DNA from: Myxococcota bacterium
Lineage (GTDB): Bacteria; Myxococcota_A; UBA9160; SZUA-336
DNA length: 64,000 bases
Assembly: GCA_965247115.1 (NCBI GenBank)
Contig: CBDFGR010000003.1
Location: 128,001-192,000, forward strand
Direction: 5' to 3'
Shown: positions 16,359-48,912 of the stretch, piece by piece
How the letters are laid out: each line of letters starts with the position of its first letter
Numbering within the stretch: the first letter of the stretch is position 1
The notes under the pieces: model-generated
Databases searched by the model: none
Told to the model about the DNA's origin: nothing
Seen by the model: only the letters and a program-made list of their open reading frames with translations
Program-made: the position numbers and the translations under genes

Positions 16359-16375
16359 TCCAGGCTGTTCTCCCA

Positions 16376-16420
16376 GTCTTGCGGGTCCCGGCGGTTGAGC
16401 GGTCGCGCGGCGCTCGCTGG
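16376..16420 (+). repeat. Partial, degenerate copy of the ~95-bp structured repeat
   Basis: GTCTTGCGGGTCCCGGCGGTTGAGCGGTCGCGCG matches the 5' part of the copy at 45891. Confidence 0.6.
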
Positions 16421-26317: not shown

Positions 26318-26321
26318 GTGA

Positions 26322-26704
26322 GTCTTGTGGGACCCGGCCCGCGGGCGGCCGCGGTCCACCCACCTCCGCTCAGGCCTTCGGCCTTCGCTGCGCGCGCCGC
26401 GTTCCGCGGCGCTTGCAGGGAGGTCCCAAAGAAATCGAACTTGGGGACGGTCCTAAATCCGAACTTATTCCGCGTGAGACGACCGCAGCGACGTCCATAT
26501 GAACGAATGTGCCCGAGAGTCCTACTTCAGTGACCAGAAGTTCCGACTTCGGCCAAACAAGTTCGGATTAAGGACCGTCCCCAAGTTCGGATTCCTACGG
26601 GGCTTGGCACCCATGCAAGTGCCGCAGAAGCGGCGCGCGCAGCGAAGGGCGAAGCCCTGAGCGGAGGTGGGTGGCCCGCGGCCGCCCGCGGGCCGGGTCC
26701 CACA
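26322..26704. repeat. Composite nested inverted repeat: two opposed ~92-bp repeat copies enclosing a 31-bp inner inverted repeat
   Basis: Outer arms 26322-26417 (+) and 26614-26704 (-); inner arms 26436-26466 and 26559-26589 (one mismatch). Confidence 0.9.
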
Positions 26705-26707
26705 GCT

Positions 26708-27190
26708 CTAGCCGTGGCGGGCTAGGAGCTCGTTGAGCTCTTGGCGGTCGTGGAAGCCTGGGGGGAGGCGTTCGACGATGCGGCCGTCGGGCGAGATGAG
26801 GATGTGGTAGGGGAACTGATCGGCGCCGTAGGCCAGGGCCAGCTCGAGATCTCCGATGGCCACGGGGTAGAGCACACCTTTCTGGGTGACCCAGTCTTCC
26901 ACGAACTTGCGCGGCTCGGTGTCGATGGAGATGGCGAGGACCTCCACTCCGTTCTCCCGGTGAGCGGCGTAGAAGGCGTTCAGCTCCGGCACCTCGCGCA
27001 CACAGGGGGCACACCAGGTGGCCCAGAAGTCGATTAGCACGGTCTTGCCCTGCAGCTCTCGCAACGACACCCGGCCGCCGAAGAGCTGCTCGAGCTCGAA
27101 GGCAGGAGCGGGCTCGCTCTTCCCGGGAGGCTCCGCGCTGCAGCCCAGACAGACTGCCAGGACGCCTGAGAGGACCCACCCGCTTCTCAT
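26708..27190 (-). CDS. TlpA/ResA family thiol-disulfide oxidoreductase (lipoprotein)
   Basis: CLGC lipobox-like segment, DFWATWCAPCVRE. Confidence 0.92.
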   Translation of the reverse strand: MRSGWVLSGVLAVCLGCSAEPPGKSEPAPAFELEQLFGGRVSLRELQGKTVLIDFWATWCAPCVREVPELNAFYAAHRENGVEVLAISIDTEPRKFVEDWVTQKGVLYPVAIGDLELALAYGADQFPYHILISPDGRIVERLPPGFHDRQELNELLARHG

Positions 27191-30242: not shown

Positions 30243-30331
30243 GCAAGCGCTGCGGGCCGGGCCACGCAACTGCGAGCCGCAGGCGAGCGAAGGCGAGTGA
30301 CCCGCGGCCGCCCGCGGGTCGGGACCCGCAA
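30243..30331 (-). repeat. Diverged copy of the ~95-bp structured repeat
   Basis: Reverse complement reads TTGCGGGTCCCGACCCGCGG-GCGG-CCGCGGGTC...CTTCGCTCGCCTGCGGC...GCGCTTGC. Confidence 0.75.
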
Positions 30332-30356
30332 TGCCCGCCCCGGTCCCAAGACAGGG

Positions 30357-30782
30357 ATGTTCACTGACGGCTCGTGCGAGGGGAATCCCGGTCCGGGGGG
30401 CTGGGCCTTCGTGTTCGTCGAGGACGATCGGATCGTGGCAGAGAAGCACGGCCGCGAGCCCGACACGACGAACAATCGGATGGAGCTACGCGCCCTGATC
30501 GAAGCCTACCGCTACTTGCCCGAGGACGAGCGCACCACCGTCTATTCGGACAGTGAGCTGTGCGTCAAGACGATGAACGAATGGGCTCTGCAATGGGAAC
30601 AGCGCGGTTGGCGCAGGAAGGGCGGCGCCATCAAGAACCTCGAGCTCGTCCAGGAGCTCTACGCGCTCGTCAACTCCCATACAGGAGTCGAGCTGCGCTG
30701 GATCCGTGCACACTCGGGCTCGCGCTGGAACGAGTACGTCGACTCGCTTGCCTCGGGCTACCTGCGCGACCGTCGATCCTAG
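30357..30782 (+). CDS. rnhA: Ribonuclease HI (start uncertain)
   Basis: FTDGSCEGNPGPGGW, TTNNRMEL, YSDS, WIRAHSG, NEYVD. Confidence 0.92.
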   Translation: MFTDGSCEGNPGPGGWAFVFVEDDRIVAEKHGREPDTTNNRMELRALIEAYRYLPEDERTTVYSDSELCVKTMNEWALQWEQRGWRRKGGAIKNLELVQELYALVNSHTGVELRWIRAHSGSRWNEYVDSLASGYLRDRRS

Positions 30783-30815
30783 TCCGGTATCACGCTGCGA
30801 ACGCTCTCGACCACG

Positions 30816-31256
30816 TCAAAACAGCATAGCGTCGAGCGAGTAGGCGCCGGGTCCCAGCAACGCGAAGACCAGGCAGACCACAGCCAGGTTGATGGTGTAC
30901 TCGGCGCCCGGAGGCTCGTTCGTGATCAGATACCCCGCGCCCCGATGACCGATCCGTCCGGCGACGATCATCGTGAGAATCAACAGCAGACATGCGGGAC
31001 GGGTGAACAGCCCCAGGGCGAGCAAGGCGCCCCCGCTGAACTCCGACAGCATGGCCATGCGAGCCTGGATGTGGGGCATCGGCACGCCGAGCTCGTCCAG
31101 CCAGGCAACGAAGCCAGCCATGGTGCCTGTGCCAACCACGCCCAGCTTCCCGAGTGCGTGGATTATGAAACAGACGCCGATGGCAACACGCCCGATCAGC
31201 GCAGCCAGGTCGACCAAGGACTGGCTGGTCCCCGTGAAGAGGGTCTCGAGACTCAT
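30816..31256 (-). CDS. DoxX family membrane protein
   Basis: GRVAIG..HALGKL, EFSGG..LALGLFTR, GAEY, GPGAYSLD. Confidence 0.9.
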   Translation of the reverse strand: MSLETLFTGTSQSLVDLAALIGRVAIGVCFIIHALGKLGVVGTGTMAGFVAWLDELGVPMPHIQARMAMLSEFSGGALLALGLFTRPACLLLILTMIVAGRIGHRGAGYLITNEPPGAEYTINLAVVCLVFALLGPGAYSLDAMLF

Positions 31257-31522
31257 CGCACACCTCCGAGTGAGCTCTCTTGTACCAGATCCGCCCCCGA
31301 TGGAAGGCACCCGGCTCGGATTCTGTGCGTACCCGTCTTCGGGCGGACACCGGAGTGGCCGTATCTGCGAGGGGGTGCGCCTCGAAGACAACCAACTGCG
31401 AGAGAAATCTCTCGGAACTGCTCATCCATAAAGCGTTTCAATACTTTACTCCGGCAAGCGCGGCACCCTGTAGCCGCGGGCGCTGGACTCCGGGCCACTT
31501 CAAGCGGTATATCAGGGTGCGC

Positions 31523-32317
31523 ATGGCTGCCCCCGCCGAGACCCCCCTGCATCTACTCGAGCTGCCGGAGGCACGTCCCGACTCCGCTAGGGTCGCGCTG
31601 CCACCGGCCGACGACTCGCGCGGCGAAGTGGAGTACTGCCTGGTGGACGAGGGTGGGTCCTGGCAGGCAGTACGGCTCGCGGAGCACTCTTACTTCTGGG
31701 AGCGCCCGGACGTCTACGAGTACCTCGTTCGGGACCTGCTCGAGGGCCAGGCAGCGGAGACGATCTCCAGGATGCTCGCGCGCGAGGTCGAGACCGTAGG
31801 GAGCCGTATCGAGCGTCTGCGCCTGCTCGACTTCGGTGCTGGAAACGGCTGGGTCGGCGGCGAGCTCGCCGAACTCGGGGCGCGCCAGATCTACGGCATA
31901 GACCGCTCCCCGGCGGCAGCCTCCGCGGCCGCGCGCGACAATCCCGGTGTATACGAGGACTATCTGGTCATGGACATGCGCCGGCTGAGCGAGGCGCAGC
32001 GAGACCAGCTCATGCACTTCGACTTCAACTGCCTTGCCTCGGTAGAGCCCCTCAGCGCGGATGAGCCAGCACCGAACGCCTTCACCGAGGCGTTCAACGT
32101 CCTGGCACCCGGCGGCTGGGTCGCGTTCCACCTCCATGAAGAGGCCCTCCTGGGCCAGCGTGAGTCTCACTTCGCTGCCCTCGTACGCCAGATGGTCGAG
32201 AGCGGCGCCATCTCACTTCACGCTAGAGAGCGCTACAGGCACCGGCTGACGACCCAGGGAGAGCCGCTGGTGCACGTCGCCTTCGTGGGTCGCAAGCACC
32301 GCGACTTCGAGGCGTGA
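31523..32317 (+). CDS. Class I SAM-dependent methyltransferase
   Basis: LLDFGAGNG motif I, GID motif II, LAPGGW. Confidence 0.82.
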   Translation: MAAPAETPLHLLELPEARPDSARVALPPADDSRGEVEYCLVDEGGSWQAVRLAEHSYFWERPDVYEYLVRDLLEGQAAETISRMLAREVETVGSRIERLRLLDFGAGNGWVGGELAELGARQIYGIDRSPAAASAAARDNPGVYEDYLVMDMRRLSEAQRDQLMHFDFNCLASVEPLSADEPAPNAFTEAFNVLAPGGWVAFHLHEEALLGQRESHFAALVRQMVESGAISLHARERYRHRLTTQGEPLVHVAFVGRKHRDFEA

Positions 32318-32411
32318 CTTGTGGGACCCGGCGCGCGAGCGGGCGCGCGCCACCCACCTTCGCGCTGGCCTCCGGCCCGCGCTGCGCGCGCCGCGTTCCC
32401 GCGGCGCTTGC
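32316..32411 (+). repeat. Copy of the ~95-bp structured repeat
   Basis: CTTGTGGGACCCGGCGCGCG-AGCGGG-CGCGCGCCACCCACCTTCG...GCGCCGCGTTCCCGCGGCGCTTGC. Confidence 0.88.
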
Positions 32412-32473
32412 CTTGTGGGGCCCCCCAATGCTCCGTTGTCTCATCGGCCCGCGTCATTGTTCCTGCGCGCCCG

Positions 32474-34288
32474 TCAGAGCTGAACTTGGGGACGGTCCTT
32501 GATCTGGACTTTTCGCGCCGGGTTGAGGGGGAGGTGTTGGTAGAGGGGGCCCTGGTGGAAGCCCAGGCGGGTGTAGTAGCGGCGCGTTCCGATGGAGGAG
32601 ATTACGGCCAGGTCGGGGTAGCCGGCGCTGCGAGCGAGGTTCGTGGCGTGGGTGATGAGGCGTCGACCGAAGCCCTGGTGTTGGGGGGCGGTAGTGGGGC
32701 GCTCTCCGAGGGGGGTGAGGGCGCCGTAGACGTGGACCTCGCGGATCATGGCGCTGTTCGCGATCTCGTCGATATATGCGCGGTCCATCGGGAGTGCAAG
32801 GCGGAGGAAAGCGAGGAGACGGTCGTCCGGCGTGGTCATCGACAGGAAGTGCTCGGTGCCGGTTGACGTCTCGTAGCGGAGCTCGCGGAGCTCGGCCTGA
32901 CTCGCGTCGATAGCTCCGTCGCGGATCTCGCGGCTGCGGATCTCCGCGAGCCGTCGGCCCTGCGCCGCGAGTCGCGTCTCGACGACCTCGCGCAGGTTGG
33001 CGGTCCGGTTTCCGGCGACGATGTCGGTCGACGAAATGTCCCGAATCACGCGCGTGAGACGACAGTAGGCCGGCGTGCTCGGGAGCGCGTGCTCCAGCAC
33101 CTGAAGCAGCTGCTCGCGCGTGTACGGTTGCCAGGAGCCCGACCGATATTGCTTCATCAGCTCGGCGCTCTCGATCAGGCTACACGGGTAGATCTTGAGC
33201 TCATCGGGTCGGACCGCCGGATCCTCGAAGAGCCGGTCGTAGTCCTCCAGGTCCGCTTCGACGCTTGAGCCGTGCAGGTTCGGCATCCAGTGCACGTGGA
33301 TCTTGAACCCGGCTTGTCGCAGCAGGCCAAGGGCCCTCCGGGTAGTGGCTACGTCGTGACCACGCTGGTTCGCCGCCAGCACCTCGTTCGAGAGGCTCTG
33401 CACTCCGACCTGTACTTTCGTCGCACCAAGGCGCCGCAGTGCCACCACCTCTTCCGGGCTGACGTGGTCCGGGCGGGTCTCGAGAGAGATGCCGACCGCA
33501 CGGTAGCGCCGCCCTTCGTTCTCGTGCTGGGCCGCCTCGAGGTCATCCCACCCCGCGCTCTCCCACGCGCCGACCAGCGCGCCTGCGAGGCGTTCGCGCA
33601 GGTACGTAGAGACGACGGTATTGTAGGAGGGTCCCGCATCCGCACCGTGGACCGCTGCCGAGACCTCGCGAAAGTCGGGCCCGGGCGAAGCCGGGCTGGC
33701 CGCTGCGCCATCCGGACTTCCGAAGTCGTTGAGCGCGTCGATACAGCGCTTGATGAACCAGATCCGGTACGGCTCCGGATAGTACGACCACGTACCGCCG
33801 AGCACGATGAGCTCGACCTTGTCGATCGGATGACCCAGCTCGTAGTAGGCCTGCAGGCGCACCCGCGTCTGCAGGTACGGATCGAAATTCTGCTCTGCCG
33901 CGCGCTGCGCACCAGGCTCGAGCGCAAGGTAGCTCTTGGGCATGCGCACATCGCTGGGACAGAAGATGCAGCGGCCGGGACACGGGAAGGGTTTCGTCAA
34001 CACCGTGACCGGAGCGACCCCGCTCAGCGTACGCACGCGGCGCTTGCGCAGCTTTTCCAGAAAGGACGCTTCGTTCTCCCAGCCGCGCTCGCTAGCCAGC
34101 CGGCGAAAGCCCGCGATCAGCTCGGAGCGCGAGAAGAAGCCCTTGCCGTCGCGGGGGTGCTTGCGCAGAATCCGCTCCAGATCACGCTGCGAGAAGGCGG
34201 GCAGAGATCGGACCTCGGAGATGATGGCGACGAGCTCGCGTTCGTGTTGTTCTGGATCGAAGCTGGGTTTGGTCCAGCGGCTCGTCAT
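32474..34288 (-). CDS. elp3: Elp3-family tRNA uridine(34) acetyltransferase (radical SAM + GNAT)
   Basis: RTLSGVAPV, CPGRCIFCP, LGGTW, ETRPD, HWMPNL, LKIYP, IREVHVYG, QHQGFG, IGTRRYY. Confidence 0.9.
   Translation of the reverse strand: MTSRWTKPSFDPEQHERELVAIISEVRSLPAFSQRDLERILRKHPRDGKGFFSRSELIAGFRRLASERGWENEASFLEKLRKRRVRTLSGVAPVTVLTKPFPCPGRCIFCPSDVRMPKSYLALEPGAQRAAEQNFDPYLQTRVRLQAYYELGHPIDKVELIVLGGTWSYYPEPYRIWFIKRCIDALNDFGSPDGAAASPASPGPDFREVSAAVHGADAGPSYNTVVSTYLRERLAGALVGAWESAGWDDLEAAQHENEGRRYRAVGISLETRPDHVSPEEVVALRRLGATKVQVGVQSLSNEVLAANQRGHDVATTRRALGLLRQAGFKIHVHWMPNLHGSSVEADLEDYDRLFEDPAVRPDELKIYPCSLIESAELMKQYRSGSWQPYTREQLLQVLEHALPSTPAYCRLTRVIRDISSTDIVAGNRTANLREVVETRLAAQGRRLAEIRSREIRDGAIDASQAELRELRYETSTGTEHFLSMTTPDDRLLAFLRLALPMDRAYIDEIANSAMIREVHVYGALTPLGERPTTAPQHQGFGRRLITHATNLARSAGYPDLAVISSIGTRRYYTRLGFHQGPLYQHLPLNPARKVQIKDRPQVQL
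32482..32511 (+). repeat. Solo copy of the 30-bp inner repeat arm, overlapping the Elp3 3' end
   Basis: GAACTTGGGGACGGTCCTTGATCTGGACTT; 27/30 identical to the reverse complement of 26559-26588. Confidence 0.8.
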
Positions 34289-37394: not shown

Positions 37395-37463
37395 GCCACT
37401 CTACAGCACCCCCCAGCTCATGATCTCGACAGCGCGCAGGCAATCGAGTGAGAGCCGGCAACC

Positions 37464-37556
37464 GCAAGCCGCGCCAAAAGGCGCGGCGCGCAGTGAGCCG
37501 CAGGCGAACGAAGGTGGGTGGAGCGCGGCCGCCCGCGCTCCAGGGCCCCACAAGAC
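37464..37556 (-). repeat. Copy of the ~95-bp structured repeat
   Basis: Reverse complement reads GTCTTGTGGGGCCCTGGAGCGCGG-GCGG-CCGCGCTCCACCCACCTTCG... Confidence 0.85.
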
Positions 37557-37616
37557 AGGCTACACTCCCTCCGCTCGGGAGAGCTCGGGCAGGGAGCTGA
37601 AGAAGAGGGCTGCGTG

Positions 37617-41291: not shown

Positions 41292-43199
41292 ATGAGCCAC
41301 CCCTGCAAGCGCCGCGACGCGGCGCGCGCAGCCAGGGCCGTTGGCCTCTGCGGAGGTGGAAGGAGCGCAGCCCTATGGGCAATGCTCCTCCTCTTGCTCT
41401 CCCCTGCGGCCTGGGCGGGCGAGACGCTTCTGGTCATGGATGTGTCCGAGAGCATGGCCACGACGTGTCCAGCGGGCGAGGACTCCCTGCTCTCACTCGC
41501 AATCGCGAGAGTCCGAGAACACCTGGACGCTCTGCCCCCGGGCGAAGCACAAGTGGGTCTGATCGCATTTGCCGCGGAGGCCGTGGTTCTTCAGCTGCCA
41601 ACGACGGACATCGGCGCCCTCCGGACACTCGTGGCCACCGCAACGCCAGTTCCAGAGACCGCTTCGCTGCTCGGGGCCCTGGTCACCGCGGCCCGCGTCC
41701 TGGAAGAACGCGGGACAGAGCAGGGTAGTCGGATCCTCGTTTTTAGCTCCGGTGGCACCGATGCTGGCGGGCCGCTCCTCGCGCTTCTCGCCTCGCTCCA
41801 CGCACGGGGCGTGTCGGTCGAGATCGAGCTACTCGAGCCGCGCCAGTCGAGCAGCGGTGAGGCGTGGGGGAGCGTCGACACCAGGGTTCGCGCAAGCGCG
41901 TGCGCCGGCGGCGAGCCGGCCGCGGCAGGCAGCCAGATGGAGGACTCGGTCCGCCGCACCGTCGCACGCCAGCTCGGGGTTCCCGCCGAGAGCCTGAGCC
42001 CCGGCACCGACCTCGTCGAGGACCTGGGGGTGGATCGCGCTACGGCGTTCGAGGTCCTGGCGCGCATCAGCGACGAGTACGAGGTGAGGGTTCCCGATTC
42101 CGGCGATCTCACCCGGATCGGTGCGATCGCGGACTACGTGGCCAGCGTCGAGGGCGCTGGCCTCCGAACCCGAGCTCCCAGCTCCGCGTACGTCCAGACC
42201 ATCCTCTACGGGACGAACCGCAAGCCCAAGCGTTCGTCAGATCCCGTCGATCTCTACTCCAGCGAACGCAGCCGTGTCGGCCAGCTCCACTACGGCGCGT
42301 GCGAGGTTTCGATCCCGCTGCGCGCGCACAAGCCGGGCTCTCTCGAGACGCCATTTCTCGACCTCGAGTACCTGGCCGATGGGAGGCAGCACATCTCGTT
42401 GAAGAAGGTGGAGCCGATGGACAAGGCCGGTTTCTTTCGAGGCCTGCGCTCCAAGCTGCATTCGGAGGACGTGAGCGAGGGCCCGCGGGCAGACGCCATG
42501 GTCTTCATTCCGGGCTTCAACACCACGTTCGGCAGCGTGGCGCGGAGGACCGCGCAGATGTCGTACGACCTCGGCTTCCGCGGTGCTCCGATCATGTTCT
42601 CCTGGCCGTCCGACGGGAGCGCCCTTGGTTACCTGCCCGATCGCGAAGACATCGAGTGGAGCGTGCCTCATATCGAGAGGTTCCTGACGGAGATCATCGA
42701 GGAGGGGAGCCCCCGAAGGCTGCATCTGATCGCGCACAGCATGGGCAACGAGGGCCTGCTCAGGGCCCTGATGCTCATCGCGACGCGCACGAACCCAGGA
42801 GACCCACCACTCTTCGAGAACGTCATCCTGGCCGCTCCGGACTTCGACGCGCAGATCTTCGCAGAGCAGACCGCACCGCGGGTCCGCGGTCTCGCCCGAC
42901 GCTGGACAGTGTACGTCTCCGACCAGGATGGCGCGCTCAACGTGTCGAGCAAGATTCGAAGTGCAAGGCGACTCGGTCTCCCCATCACGCTCACTGCAGG
43001 AGTGGACACCGTAGATGCTACGGGAGTCGAGGTGACACCCTGGAGTGTACCCGAGTTCCACTCCTACTACGCCACGAAGCAGCTTGTTATTGCCGACCTG
43101 ATCGGCGTGCTCGAGGGACTCGACCCGTCCAGCCGCCGGCTGTTCTCCCTGATGAGCGGCGAGCTCCCCTACTGGTCGTTCACGGAGGGGCTCCCGTAG
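41292..43199 (+). CDS. Putatively secreted vWA + ACP-like + DUF900 alpha/beta hydrolase fusion protein
   Basis: Signal peptide (SPAAWA), LVMDVSESM (MIDAS), ACP-like segment with DLGVDR, then GTNR, GFNTTF, FSWPS, AHSMG, AAPD. Start 41292 or 41382. Confidence 0.8.
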   Translation: MSHPCKRRDAARAARAVGLCGGGRSAALWAMLLLLLSPAAWAGETLLVMDVSESMATTCPAGEDSLLSLAIARVREHLDALPPGEAQVGLIAFAAEAVVLQLPTTDIGALRTLVATATPVPETASLLGALVTAARVLEERGTEQGSRILVFSSGGTDAGGPLLALLASLHARGVSVEIELLEPRQSSSGEAWGSVDTRVRASACAGGEPAAAGSQMEDSVRRTVARQLGVPAESLSPGTDLVEDLGVDRATAFEVLARISDEYEVRVPDSGDLTRIGAIADYVASVEGAGLRTRAPSSAYVQTILYGTNRKPKRSSDPVDLYSSERSRVGQLHYGACEVSIPLRAHKPGSLETPFLDLEYLADGRQHISLKKVEPMDKAGFFRGLRSKLHSEDVSEGPRADAMVFIPGFNTTFGSVARRTAQMSYDLGFRGAPIMFSWPSDGSALGYLPDREDIEWSVPHIERFLTEIIEEGSPRRLHLIAHSMGNEGLLRALMLIATRTNPGDPPLFENVILAAPDFDAQIFAEQTAPRVRGLARRWTVYVSDQDGALNVSSKIRSARRLGLPITLTAGVDTVDATGVEVTPWSVPEFHSYYATKQLVIADLIGVLEGLDPSSRRLFSLMSGELPYWSFTEGLP

Positions 43200-45832: not shown

Positions 45833-45890
45833 CTTCCCCAAAGCTGCACGGGAGCTGCCGCCCCGGCCCCGGCCTCCGACTCCTTGCCCA

Positions 45891-46021
45891 GTCTTGCGGG
45901 ACCCGGCGCGCTAGCGGTCGCGCGCCGCCCGCCTCCGCTCAGGGCTTTGCCCTTCGCTGCGCGCGCCGCTTTCGCGGCGCTTGCAGGGTTACCCCGCCTC
46001 TACCTGCGGGTCCCGCAAGAC
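45891..46021 (+). mobile_element. 131-bp MITE-like unit: repeat copy bounded by perfect 14-bp terminal inverted repeats
   Basis: GTCTTGCGGGACCC (45891-45904) ... GGGTCCCGCAAGAC (46008-46021); no obvious target-site duplication. Confidence 0.65.
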
Positions 46022-48746: not shown

Positions 48747-48787
48747 CCGCCACCCGAGCTTAGCACCTCTCTCGAGGCTCCTCCCAG

Positions 48788-48879
48788 TTCTTGTGGGACC
48801 CGGCCGCGGGCGGCCGCGGCCACCCACTCTTCGCGCAGGCCTGGGCCTTCGCTGCACGCGCCGCGTACGCCGCGCTGGC
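48788..48879 (+). repeat. Copy of the ~95-bp structured repeat
   Basis: TCTTGTGGGACCCGGCCGCGG-GCGG-CCGCGGCCACCCACTCTTCG...CCTTCGCTGCACGCGCCGCG. Confidence 0.85.
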
Positions 48880-48912
48880 TGGTTGCCTGGTCGTTGCGCG
48901 TCCGTCCCGCGA

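Follow-up and report, generated by a model that had tools for sequence, protein, structure and literature searches.

Among the described systems, those closest to the repeat presented here are the REPs, the IS91 family and the terminal repeats of the TIRYT transposases. TnpA-REP of E. coli requires the AA/GC stem irregularity of the REPs, and cleavage and rejoining on either side of REPs constitute an HUH precedent (PMC8266576); a rolling-circle model exists for BIMEs (PMC2817692), IS91 targets CTTG, generates no target duplication and takes along adjacent DNA when termination fails (PMC13181058), and the terminal repeats of TIRYT (TnpA-Y1 subclass 2.1) bear the core GGGG[AT][CG]A[CG] (PMC3733652, PMC6006769). 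How REP-like repeats devoid of a transposase multiply is stated to be an open question, both for the CGTC REPs (PMC3733652) and for REP dissemination (PMC8266576).

The family dealt with here, named E, is a non-coding unit of ~95 bases present in a 64,000-nucleotide stretch of DNA (the window) from a Myxococcota bacterium whose own genome of 5.17 Mb is designated G000. A first profile HMM, built from the window copies, gave 198 matches in this genome, and a rebuilt profile yields 195 copies with E<1e-3, the reversed genome giving none; this number, together with the presence/absence polymorphism described below, disposes of the possibility that E is a matter of few copies. As had been remarked from the sequence, the copies are essentially intergenic, only 17 of the 195 overlapping a predicted gene by more than 30 nt. 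Their neighbors are ordinary chromosomal genes, as are the genes between paired copies among those listed, and long stretches of the contigs are free of E. No split half-elements around a gene were found, and replichore orientation gave no clear signal of bias (three contigs, weak skew). Rfam 15 at gathering thresholds does not match E, recognizing only a tRNA within the window and giving a best E-value of about 1 at the focal locus; in the initial annotation E was not recognized as a named REP/MITE family.

With a profile made from the genome's own copies, the window contains seven full copies scoring 33–84 bits. Eight had originally been counted; seven of these are full, the one at 16376 is partial and weak, and a ninth, partial copy had been missed. 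In the following list G002 is the genome of a congener and R is a second repeat, described further on.

16375..16411, plus strand: partial copy, start and first stem only, 5.3 bits; 46 nt match the 45887 copy at 85%
26322..26417 (profile match 26321-26420), plus strand: the focal copy, with its left end at 26322 and minus as its folded strand
26614..26707 (profile match 26612-26708), minus strand: copy with its left end flush against the TAG stop (26708-26710) of a thioredoxin-like gene
30243..30352 (profile match 30243-30333), minus strand: copy with the short form of arm 2 and, at ~30334-30352, a stacked start fragment
32315..32500 (profile match 32315-32413), plus strand: copy flush with a TGA stop; a start fragment and R (at 32482) come after it
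37463..37557, minus strand: copy without counterpart at the orthologous G002 site
41302..41372, minus strand: partial copy without left end, the ninth of the window
45890..45988, plus strand: copy without counterpart at the orthologous G002 site
48787..48882, plus strand: copy divergent to a tRNA-Gly, 41 nt from the tRNA 5' end

Positions 30770-32300 of the window are strain-variable, with low cover in four runs and partial absence from G002, and hold two frames without a Pfam match.

The pairing of E is conserved in many genera: 95.3% of the cells are paired in 79 model hits, as against 26–56% in slid controls, and double-sided changes occur in 18 of the 23 pairs, none of 500 shuffles reaching any of these measures in an alignment that was fitted to the model and whose members are kin and not independent. 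The covariation first perceived among the window copies is strong. The three-hairpin fold proposed at that time holds insofar as the hairpins covary, but was incomplete, there being an extra outer helix, and hairpins 2 and 3 extending through near-invariant 2x2 loops; furthermore, the fold belongs to the strand opposite to that used in the initial annotation, i.e., to the minus strand. The focal copy has three arms:

26327..26363, minus strand: arm 1, with the outer helix GTGGG/CCCAC, an asymmetric loop, then the 9-bp hairpin 1 (26336-26357)
26368..26388, minus strand: arm 2, with 2 bp, tandem GA/GA, a 5-bp stem and a C-GAA-G triloop; the arm is bordered on this strand by GCA and GNAG
26389..26417, minus strand: arm 3, with 3 bp, an AA/GC internal loop, a 7-8-bp stem and a GAA loop

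The outer helix under hairpin 1 covaries as GYGGG/CCCRC, occurring as GTGGG/CCCAC or GCGGG/CCCGC and in further versions in other genera. In unconstrained alignment columns, arm 2 is seen to extend via a TC/TC loop (146–152 of 152 per column), which is GA/GA on the minus strand, and arm 3 via a GC/TT loop (150–151 of 152 per column), which is AA/GC on the minus strand. The parsed copies reproduce the stem variants of hairpin 1, the swap AGGCC/GGCCT versus AGGGC/GCCCT of hairpin 2 and the five GNA loops of the latter in window copies, all as originally described; the loop of hairpin 1, described as a conserved GCGG, is not invariant, since 33 of the 134 parsed copies have GCGT, against 77 with GCGG. 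Arm 1 is preceded on the folded strand by GNAG, and the GNAG inside E is GGAG in 80, GAAG in 46 and GTAG in 8 of 134 copies.

Several observations bear on the strand and on the type of molecule that is read. Single mismatches in the stems amount to 30 G-T on the minus strand vs 9 on the plus strand and those of the outer helix to 10 vs 1, counts that come from related copies, so that p-values are overstated. Among the 267 copies parsed, 194 have GNA as the minus-strand loop of arm 2 (85/130 in the own genome, 24/36 in G002 and 85/101 in other genomes), whereas 4 have it on the plus strand; loop and closing pair together read C-GNA-G in 58 of 75 cross-genus hits. Folded as DNA, the focal copy has z=-3.3 on the minus and -1.6 on the plus strand. 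GNA mini-hairpins are far more stable as DNA than as RNA (PMC13037366; PMC3201870). Taken together, the minus-strand excess of G-T, the GNA triloops and the AA/GC loop indicate that a protein probably reads the folded minus strand of E as DNA, a wording kept at this level because the minus strand is likewise the more stable one as RNA (126 of 134 copies). The early proposal of a structure-selected, multicopy, polymorphic element with a DNA-like, strand-specific fold is thus supported.

The better folding of the minus strand as RNA is also what could be expected if E were kept as an RNA structure in 3' UTRs, as a nuclease barrier or in connection with Rho-dependent termination or terminating ribosomes, its spread being secondary. 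Indeed, a gene reads into one or both ends at 162 of the 195 copies, and REPs have been proposed to be RNA elements (PMC3733652). Nevertheless, this role is improbable: the adjacent gene that contributes the stop codon reads the plus strand, i.e., the poorer fold, triloops prevail and not RNA tetraloops, the U-tract of a terminator is absent at the focal locus, about 40% of the sites turn over within the genus, and no functional class is evident among the gene neighbors read.

As to the extremities, the left end of E is fixed and repeatedly remodelled and the right end is ragged. The former reads G(T/C)CTTG(T/C)GGGACCC and in the focal copy corresponds to the following feature:

26322..26328, plus strand: GTCTTGT, the motif of the fixed left end, which lies against stop codons and recurs at the beginning of stacked fragments

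Behind a co-oriented gene, the first full or partial start of E lies at most 7 nt from the stop in 50 of 81 copies and at most 12 nt in 71 of 81; the G of TAG is common to stop and start in 14 copies, and in 11 the start comes directly after the stop. In low-copy genomes the 3' end of a tRNA is flush with E in 4 of about 33 copies, a situation encountered in none of the copies of the own genome. From the right end, 20–380 nt separate E from the next stop. Nearness to stop codons is known for ordinary REPs (PMC3733652), and short intergenic gaps partly explain that of E, 46% of the convergent gaps being ≤20 nt.

Close inverted pairs are joined right end to right end in 21 cases and in the opposite manner in 0, and head-to-tail arrays comprise up to six units with imprecise junctions. 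A truncated start lies directly upstream of 37 of the 148 non-tandem copies (7 of 61 in G002), vs 5% in the control; its heptamer is unlike that of the full copy in 29 of the 37, and some of these stacked fragments are local duplications keeping a rare start variant. Base -9 of E is C in 103 of 148 copies, and CTTG precedes E in 123 of 170, the G of this tetranucleotide pairing inside E; CTTA, CTAG or CTGA is found at this position in other genera. The two ends of E bear merely a degenerate 7-nt likeness to each other.

Comparison of the abutted stops between congeners gave an identical junction in 2 of the 10 cases flagged as flush in both G000 and G002; where the flag is on one genome only, the protein of this genome is shorter than that of the congener in 8 cases, longer in 2 and equal in 25, the baseline of length changes in either direction at genes without E being 66 of 534. 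These flags are pattern-based; two or more of them are false, and a more distant copy is present on some sides that bear no flag. E may also be met inside reading frames. At G000:C2:1554039-1554308 three tandem copies lie in frame in an ORF that is purD-like by sequence likeness, adding ~90 residues, and are lacking in G002; at L053:10321 of G002 a copy lies in frame just 5' of a prepilin-like GFTLLE motif, G000:C2:743020 keeping arm 3 only.

The region 26322-26707 is one 386-bp composite consisting of E, R, a spacer, inverted R and inverted E. The two copies originally listed here (26322 plus and 26614 minus) are thus both real, but are not separate, as they enclose an inverted pair of R. The inner parts of the composite are the following:

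26437..26466, plus strand: repeat R with the GGGGACGGTCC core, TIRYT-type, which also flanks a Y1 gene at C3:2177573
26467..26558, no strand assigned: conserved spacer of the R pair, belonging to the shared tail carried by E
26559..26588, minus strand: second R copy, inverted
26589..26613, minus strand: linker of the shared tail, in shortened form, between R and the minus-strand E copy at 26614

R occupies 102 sites in the own genome and matches the TIRYT-type core with one mismatch. E leads into R on the same strand in 55 of 195 copies, and R stands on the left side of one copy. The shared tail (linker, R, spacer, R) is present on 42 of 179 E copies at 40 loci, in graded lengths from 20 to about 200 nt; the linker occurs without E only where an IS adjoins it directly upstream, and the composites start at the fixed end of E, not at R. 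E thus carries downstream DNA, a pattern directly seen in the copies and attributable, by analogy, to a mechanism like that of IS91 upon failed termination.

The fusion with R leads to the question of whether E could be a passenger of RAYT/TIRYT (Y1) transposases, or a substrate for them, some of these enzymes having later been lost from the genomes. Besides the 55 copies that lead into R, and the Y1 gene of the own genome that R flanks, this would be in keeping with the group-2 REP irregularity of arm 3 and with the GNAG before arm 1 on the folded strand. However, with two profiles (PF01797 and NF047646) Y1 was detected in 0 of 12 genomes of genus g10, 11 of which have E, and in 9 of 32 genomes of the family; three genomes (G007, G013 and G020) have Y1 and no E match. 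In the own genome there are 17 Y1 matches, and all 16 that were located lie at least 3.1 kb from E, so that the clustering of E around a RAYT/Y1 gene that had been envisaged is not seen at these 16, and the composites begin at the fixed end of E. Such a dependence on Y1 enzymes is, in our judgment, still less probable than an RNA role.

Other repeats and Y1 genes were noticed in the own genome. At G000:C3:2177079-2178048 (L001) a TIRYT-type Y1 gene is placed between inverted R copies, its family character seeming to be lost after ~180 residues, possibly by a frameshift. A divergent multicopy Y1 family of ~235 residues with a common upstream region, poorly seen by Pfam, occupies 16 sites (e.g., C3:117917 and C2:942791), and the upstream remnants of several of its copies are presumably IS481-like. 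A third repeat family, GTCGGAGGTCGGGAACGTCCCC, forms inverted pairs ~105 nt apart that often share gaps with E (C3:516724-516830 and C2:1589406-1589510, with a remnant at window position 45877) and for which no partner gene was seen. Finally, a 12-nt unit of the CAGCGTCCCTCG type makes up long arrays within a multicopy cassette (G000:C3:804793-805117, C3:1214607-1215315 and others).

The turnover of E was followed in G002, which is about 87% identical and of whose 5.8 Mb 793 kb were compared. Of 58 orthologous sites, 23 are without E in G002, and G000 in turn has no E at 21 of the 53 sites taken from G002, so that about 40% of the orthologous sites differ between the two congeners. Few junctions are clean, the cleanest empty site (L025) displaying no target duplication, and the new sites have no homology to E; at the focal locus G002 has no virgin site but an inverted E pair that has collapsed. 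Most empty sites are ragged at 87% identity and some are deletion remnants, so that a missing copy may reflect either gain or loss of E. In near strains the contigs of four runs mostly break at E and offer no clean empty allele. Sites common to other genera amount to 5 of 51, no more than baseline (p=0.28), in a count that left out nine loci of one close-kin record as well as non-Myxococcota or duplicate loci.

Over a wider range, BLAST found E in 31 of 61 genomes including the own one, and with a covariance model 49 of the 151 genomes from the class have it, including 17 of 22 in the family and 0 of 49 in family f5; phylum-wide, 7 of 151 genomes have E, all from families already seen in the class. 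Most of the named records that contain the core pattern carry the label Myxococcota, Myxococcales or Deltaproteobacteria, and one that is rich in copies bears the label Spirochaetales; the same architecture is found in most of 80 metagenome loci. The specific pattern gave 0 matches in viral contigs, where the 56 loose-pattern matches are mostly chance ones lacking the fold; plasmids gave one 38-nt partial match and phages none. A similar CTNCGCTC...TCGCTGCGC core with different arms was observed in L131, L140 and L410 (haloarchaeal or TFIIB-bearing) and in L128 and L142 (Gammaproteobacteria). Between the replication gene and rop of ColE1 (L268:1312-1367), the pattern GC-GNA-GC-GA...GA-GC-G-G is in common with the E core.

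The fixed end by CTTG raises the possibility that E, as a non-autonomous miniature of the IS91 family, is mobilized by local Y2 transposases, given that IS91 is reported to target CTTG without target duplication and to carry adjacent DNA (PMC13181058). However, the ends downstream of the local Y2 genes are mostly CCTATCC, unlike E, with one weak E-like match in 26 Y2 loci and no E-like end at the own genome's Y2 fragment; Y2 is found in 14 of 32 family genomes, in 80 of 151 class genomes and in 27 of the 49 genomes of f5, which is free of E; furthermore, the G of CTTG pairs inside E and the tetranucleotide is another one in other genera. Of all the readings weighed here this is the one to which we give the least credit.

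Three additional candidate partners were rejected. Reverse transcriptase (PF00078), which had been named as a possible partner, is present in only 4 of 32 family genomes and in none of G002, G004, G010, G011 and G023, the match in the own genome being a broken fragment >300 kb from E. TnpB is present in 2 of 32 family genomes, and one TnpB that adjoins E has its own ends. The only GIY-YIG match of the own genome is in a 669-aa frame far from E. With regard to the tnpB gene at L228:110-1500 of G012, a genome with four TnpB matches, it lies between an E left end and a tRNA, and is bounded by ~27-bp terminal inverted repeats with an apparent 5-bp duplication, so that its ends are TIR-type rather than of the IS200/IS605 kind. 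A motif scan of the predicted proteins gave no other HUH candidate, and clustering of neighbors combined with Pfam gave no recurring mobile gene among the 99 scanned of the 121 neighbors without G000 homologue, 22 short or duplicate ones having been left out. The PF02720 (DUF222) profile missed even the DUF222 cassettes of the own genome. Most relatives are incomplete metagenome bins, in which an enzyme gene may be lost or unassembled. These searches thus yielded no enzyme, and the mobilization of E in trans by an HUH enzyme, postulated in the initial annotation, remains a suggestion drawn from the shape of the ends.

The reading that we prefer, with a probability of about 0.5, is that E is a REP-like element spreading by one-ended single-strand transfer, in the fashion of IS91, via a putative, probably HUH-like cut-and-join enzyme. 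One polar process of this type would account for the shape of the ends, the start fragments, the shortened proteins, the carried tails and the arrays. The minus strand of E would fold once exposed at a fork or in an R-loop, and would be bound via its irregular loops; cut and strand transfer would occur just beyond the fixed end, at a distance of a few bases and in a loosely defined C-N-N-G context, after which copying or transfer would enter E and halt late or early, giving rise to tails, head-to-tail arrays and fragments. If an old copy were nearby, homology could complete the event; a join downstream of the old start would leave a stacked start fragment, a join upstream would delete the flank, and repeated rounds would walk the fixed end leftwards until selection halts it at a stop codon or a tRNA end. 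No host function of E would be needed for such a spread. Only tentatively can it be suggested that E is the substrate of an unrecognized system for cutting and joining ssDNA, be it a novel protein family or a host enzyme put to this use, which would move this class-wide repeat in a one-ended manner without RAYT, IS91 or RT and drive it up against stop codons and tRNA ends.

The circumstance that Y1/RAYT, IS91 Y2, RT and TnpB do not track E could be accounted for by host replication or repair, if the folded minus strand were to stall or prime replication like an ssi or primosome site and template switching or gene conversion were to copy E from its fixed end. Compatible with this mechanism are the start fragments that are local duplications with a rare start variant and the resemblance of the E core GC-GNA-GC-GA...GA-GC-GNA-G to ColE1 1334-1359, between the annotated replication and rop genes, a stretch that is presumably the PriA site. 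A PriA site is located downstream of the ColE1 origin (PMC3167613) and mini-hairpins occur at phage and plasmid priming sites (PMC13037366), which also counts in favor of the host machinery. Yet host enzymes are universal, whereas E is absent from all 49 genomes of one family and patchy elsewhere, most start fragments (the 29 of 37) are unlike the neighboring copy, and the new sites have no homology to E; we therefore deem this explanation rather unlikely.

Returning to the preferred reading of a one-ended transfer, the patchiness of E across the class (49/151, with 0/49 in one family) makes its mover findable by gene-content profiling, and the polar ends provide exact predictions for a cleavage assay. 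E edits its host, the last codons of genes being clipped and a purD-like frame being entered in frame. Should an unrecognized cut-and-join system be at work, E would be a tractable model for the spread of REP families that have no transposase; should no new enzyme emerge, E would be one more REP-like family in an uncultured lineage. The open literature yielded no description of E, subscription papers, supplements and ISfinder being outside the scope of this search.

How, then, does E compare with the known systems? Like the group-2 (E. coli-type) REPs, BIMEs and REPINs (PMC8266576, PMC2817692), E is high-copy, intergenic, near stops and organized in doublets and tandem arrays, and it has a strand-specific fold, the AA/GC irregularity, GNAG at the foot of a stem and lineage-specific subtypes. 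Unlike them, it is 95 nt long with three arms, instead of a single 20-50-nt hairpin, lacks the terminal GTAG (GT(A/G)G), has strictly polar ends and mostly single copies, and no RAYT adjoins or tracks it. With the CGTC-tagged REPs (PMC3733652) it has in common abundance, a palindromic nature and the lack of a dedicated transposase; unlike these, it has neither the CGTC tag nor a single 8-9-bp stem with a short CCA tail, is not mainly arranged in head-to-head dimers and belongs to another phylum.

The likeness to the IS91 family (PMC13181058) consists of one precise end by a CTTG that partly pairs inside E, no target duplication seen at the one clean junction and adjacent DNA carried from the other end, whereas the absence of a transposase gene and of a single termination tetranucleotide, a sequence unlike the local IS91-type ends and a distribution unrelated to Y2 genes set E apart. 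As to the TIRYT repeats, the core with one mismatch and the inverted placement around a Y1 gene are properties of R and not of E, and no more than 55 of the 195 E copies are fused to R. Bacterial MITEs such as Correia and ERIC (PMC3733652) are, like E, small, non-coding, multicopy and adjoining coding sequences, but E has no conserved terminal inverted repeats and no target duplication at the readable junctions, and its ends are polar. E thus works like a REP endowed with IS91-like polarity, yet departs from GTAG REPs, CGTC REPs, IS91 and MITEs in defining features of each.
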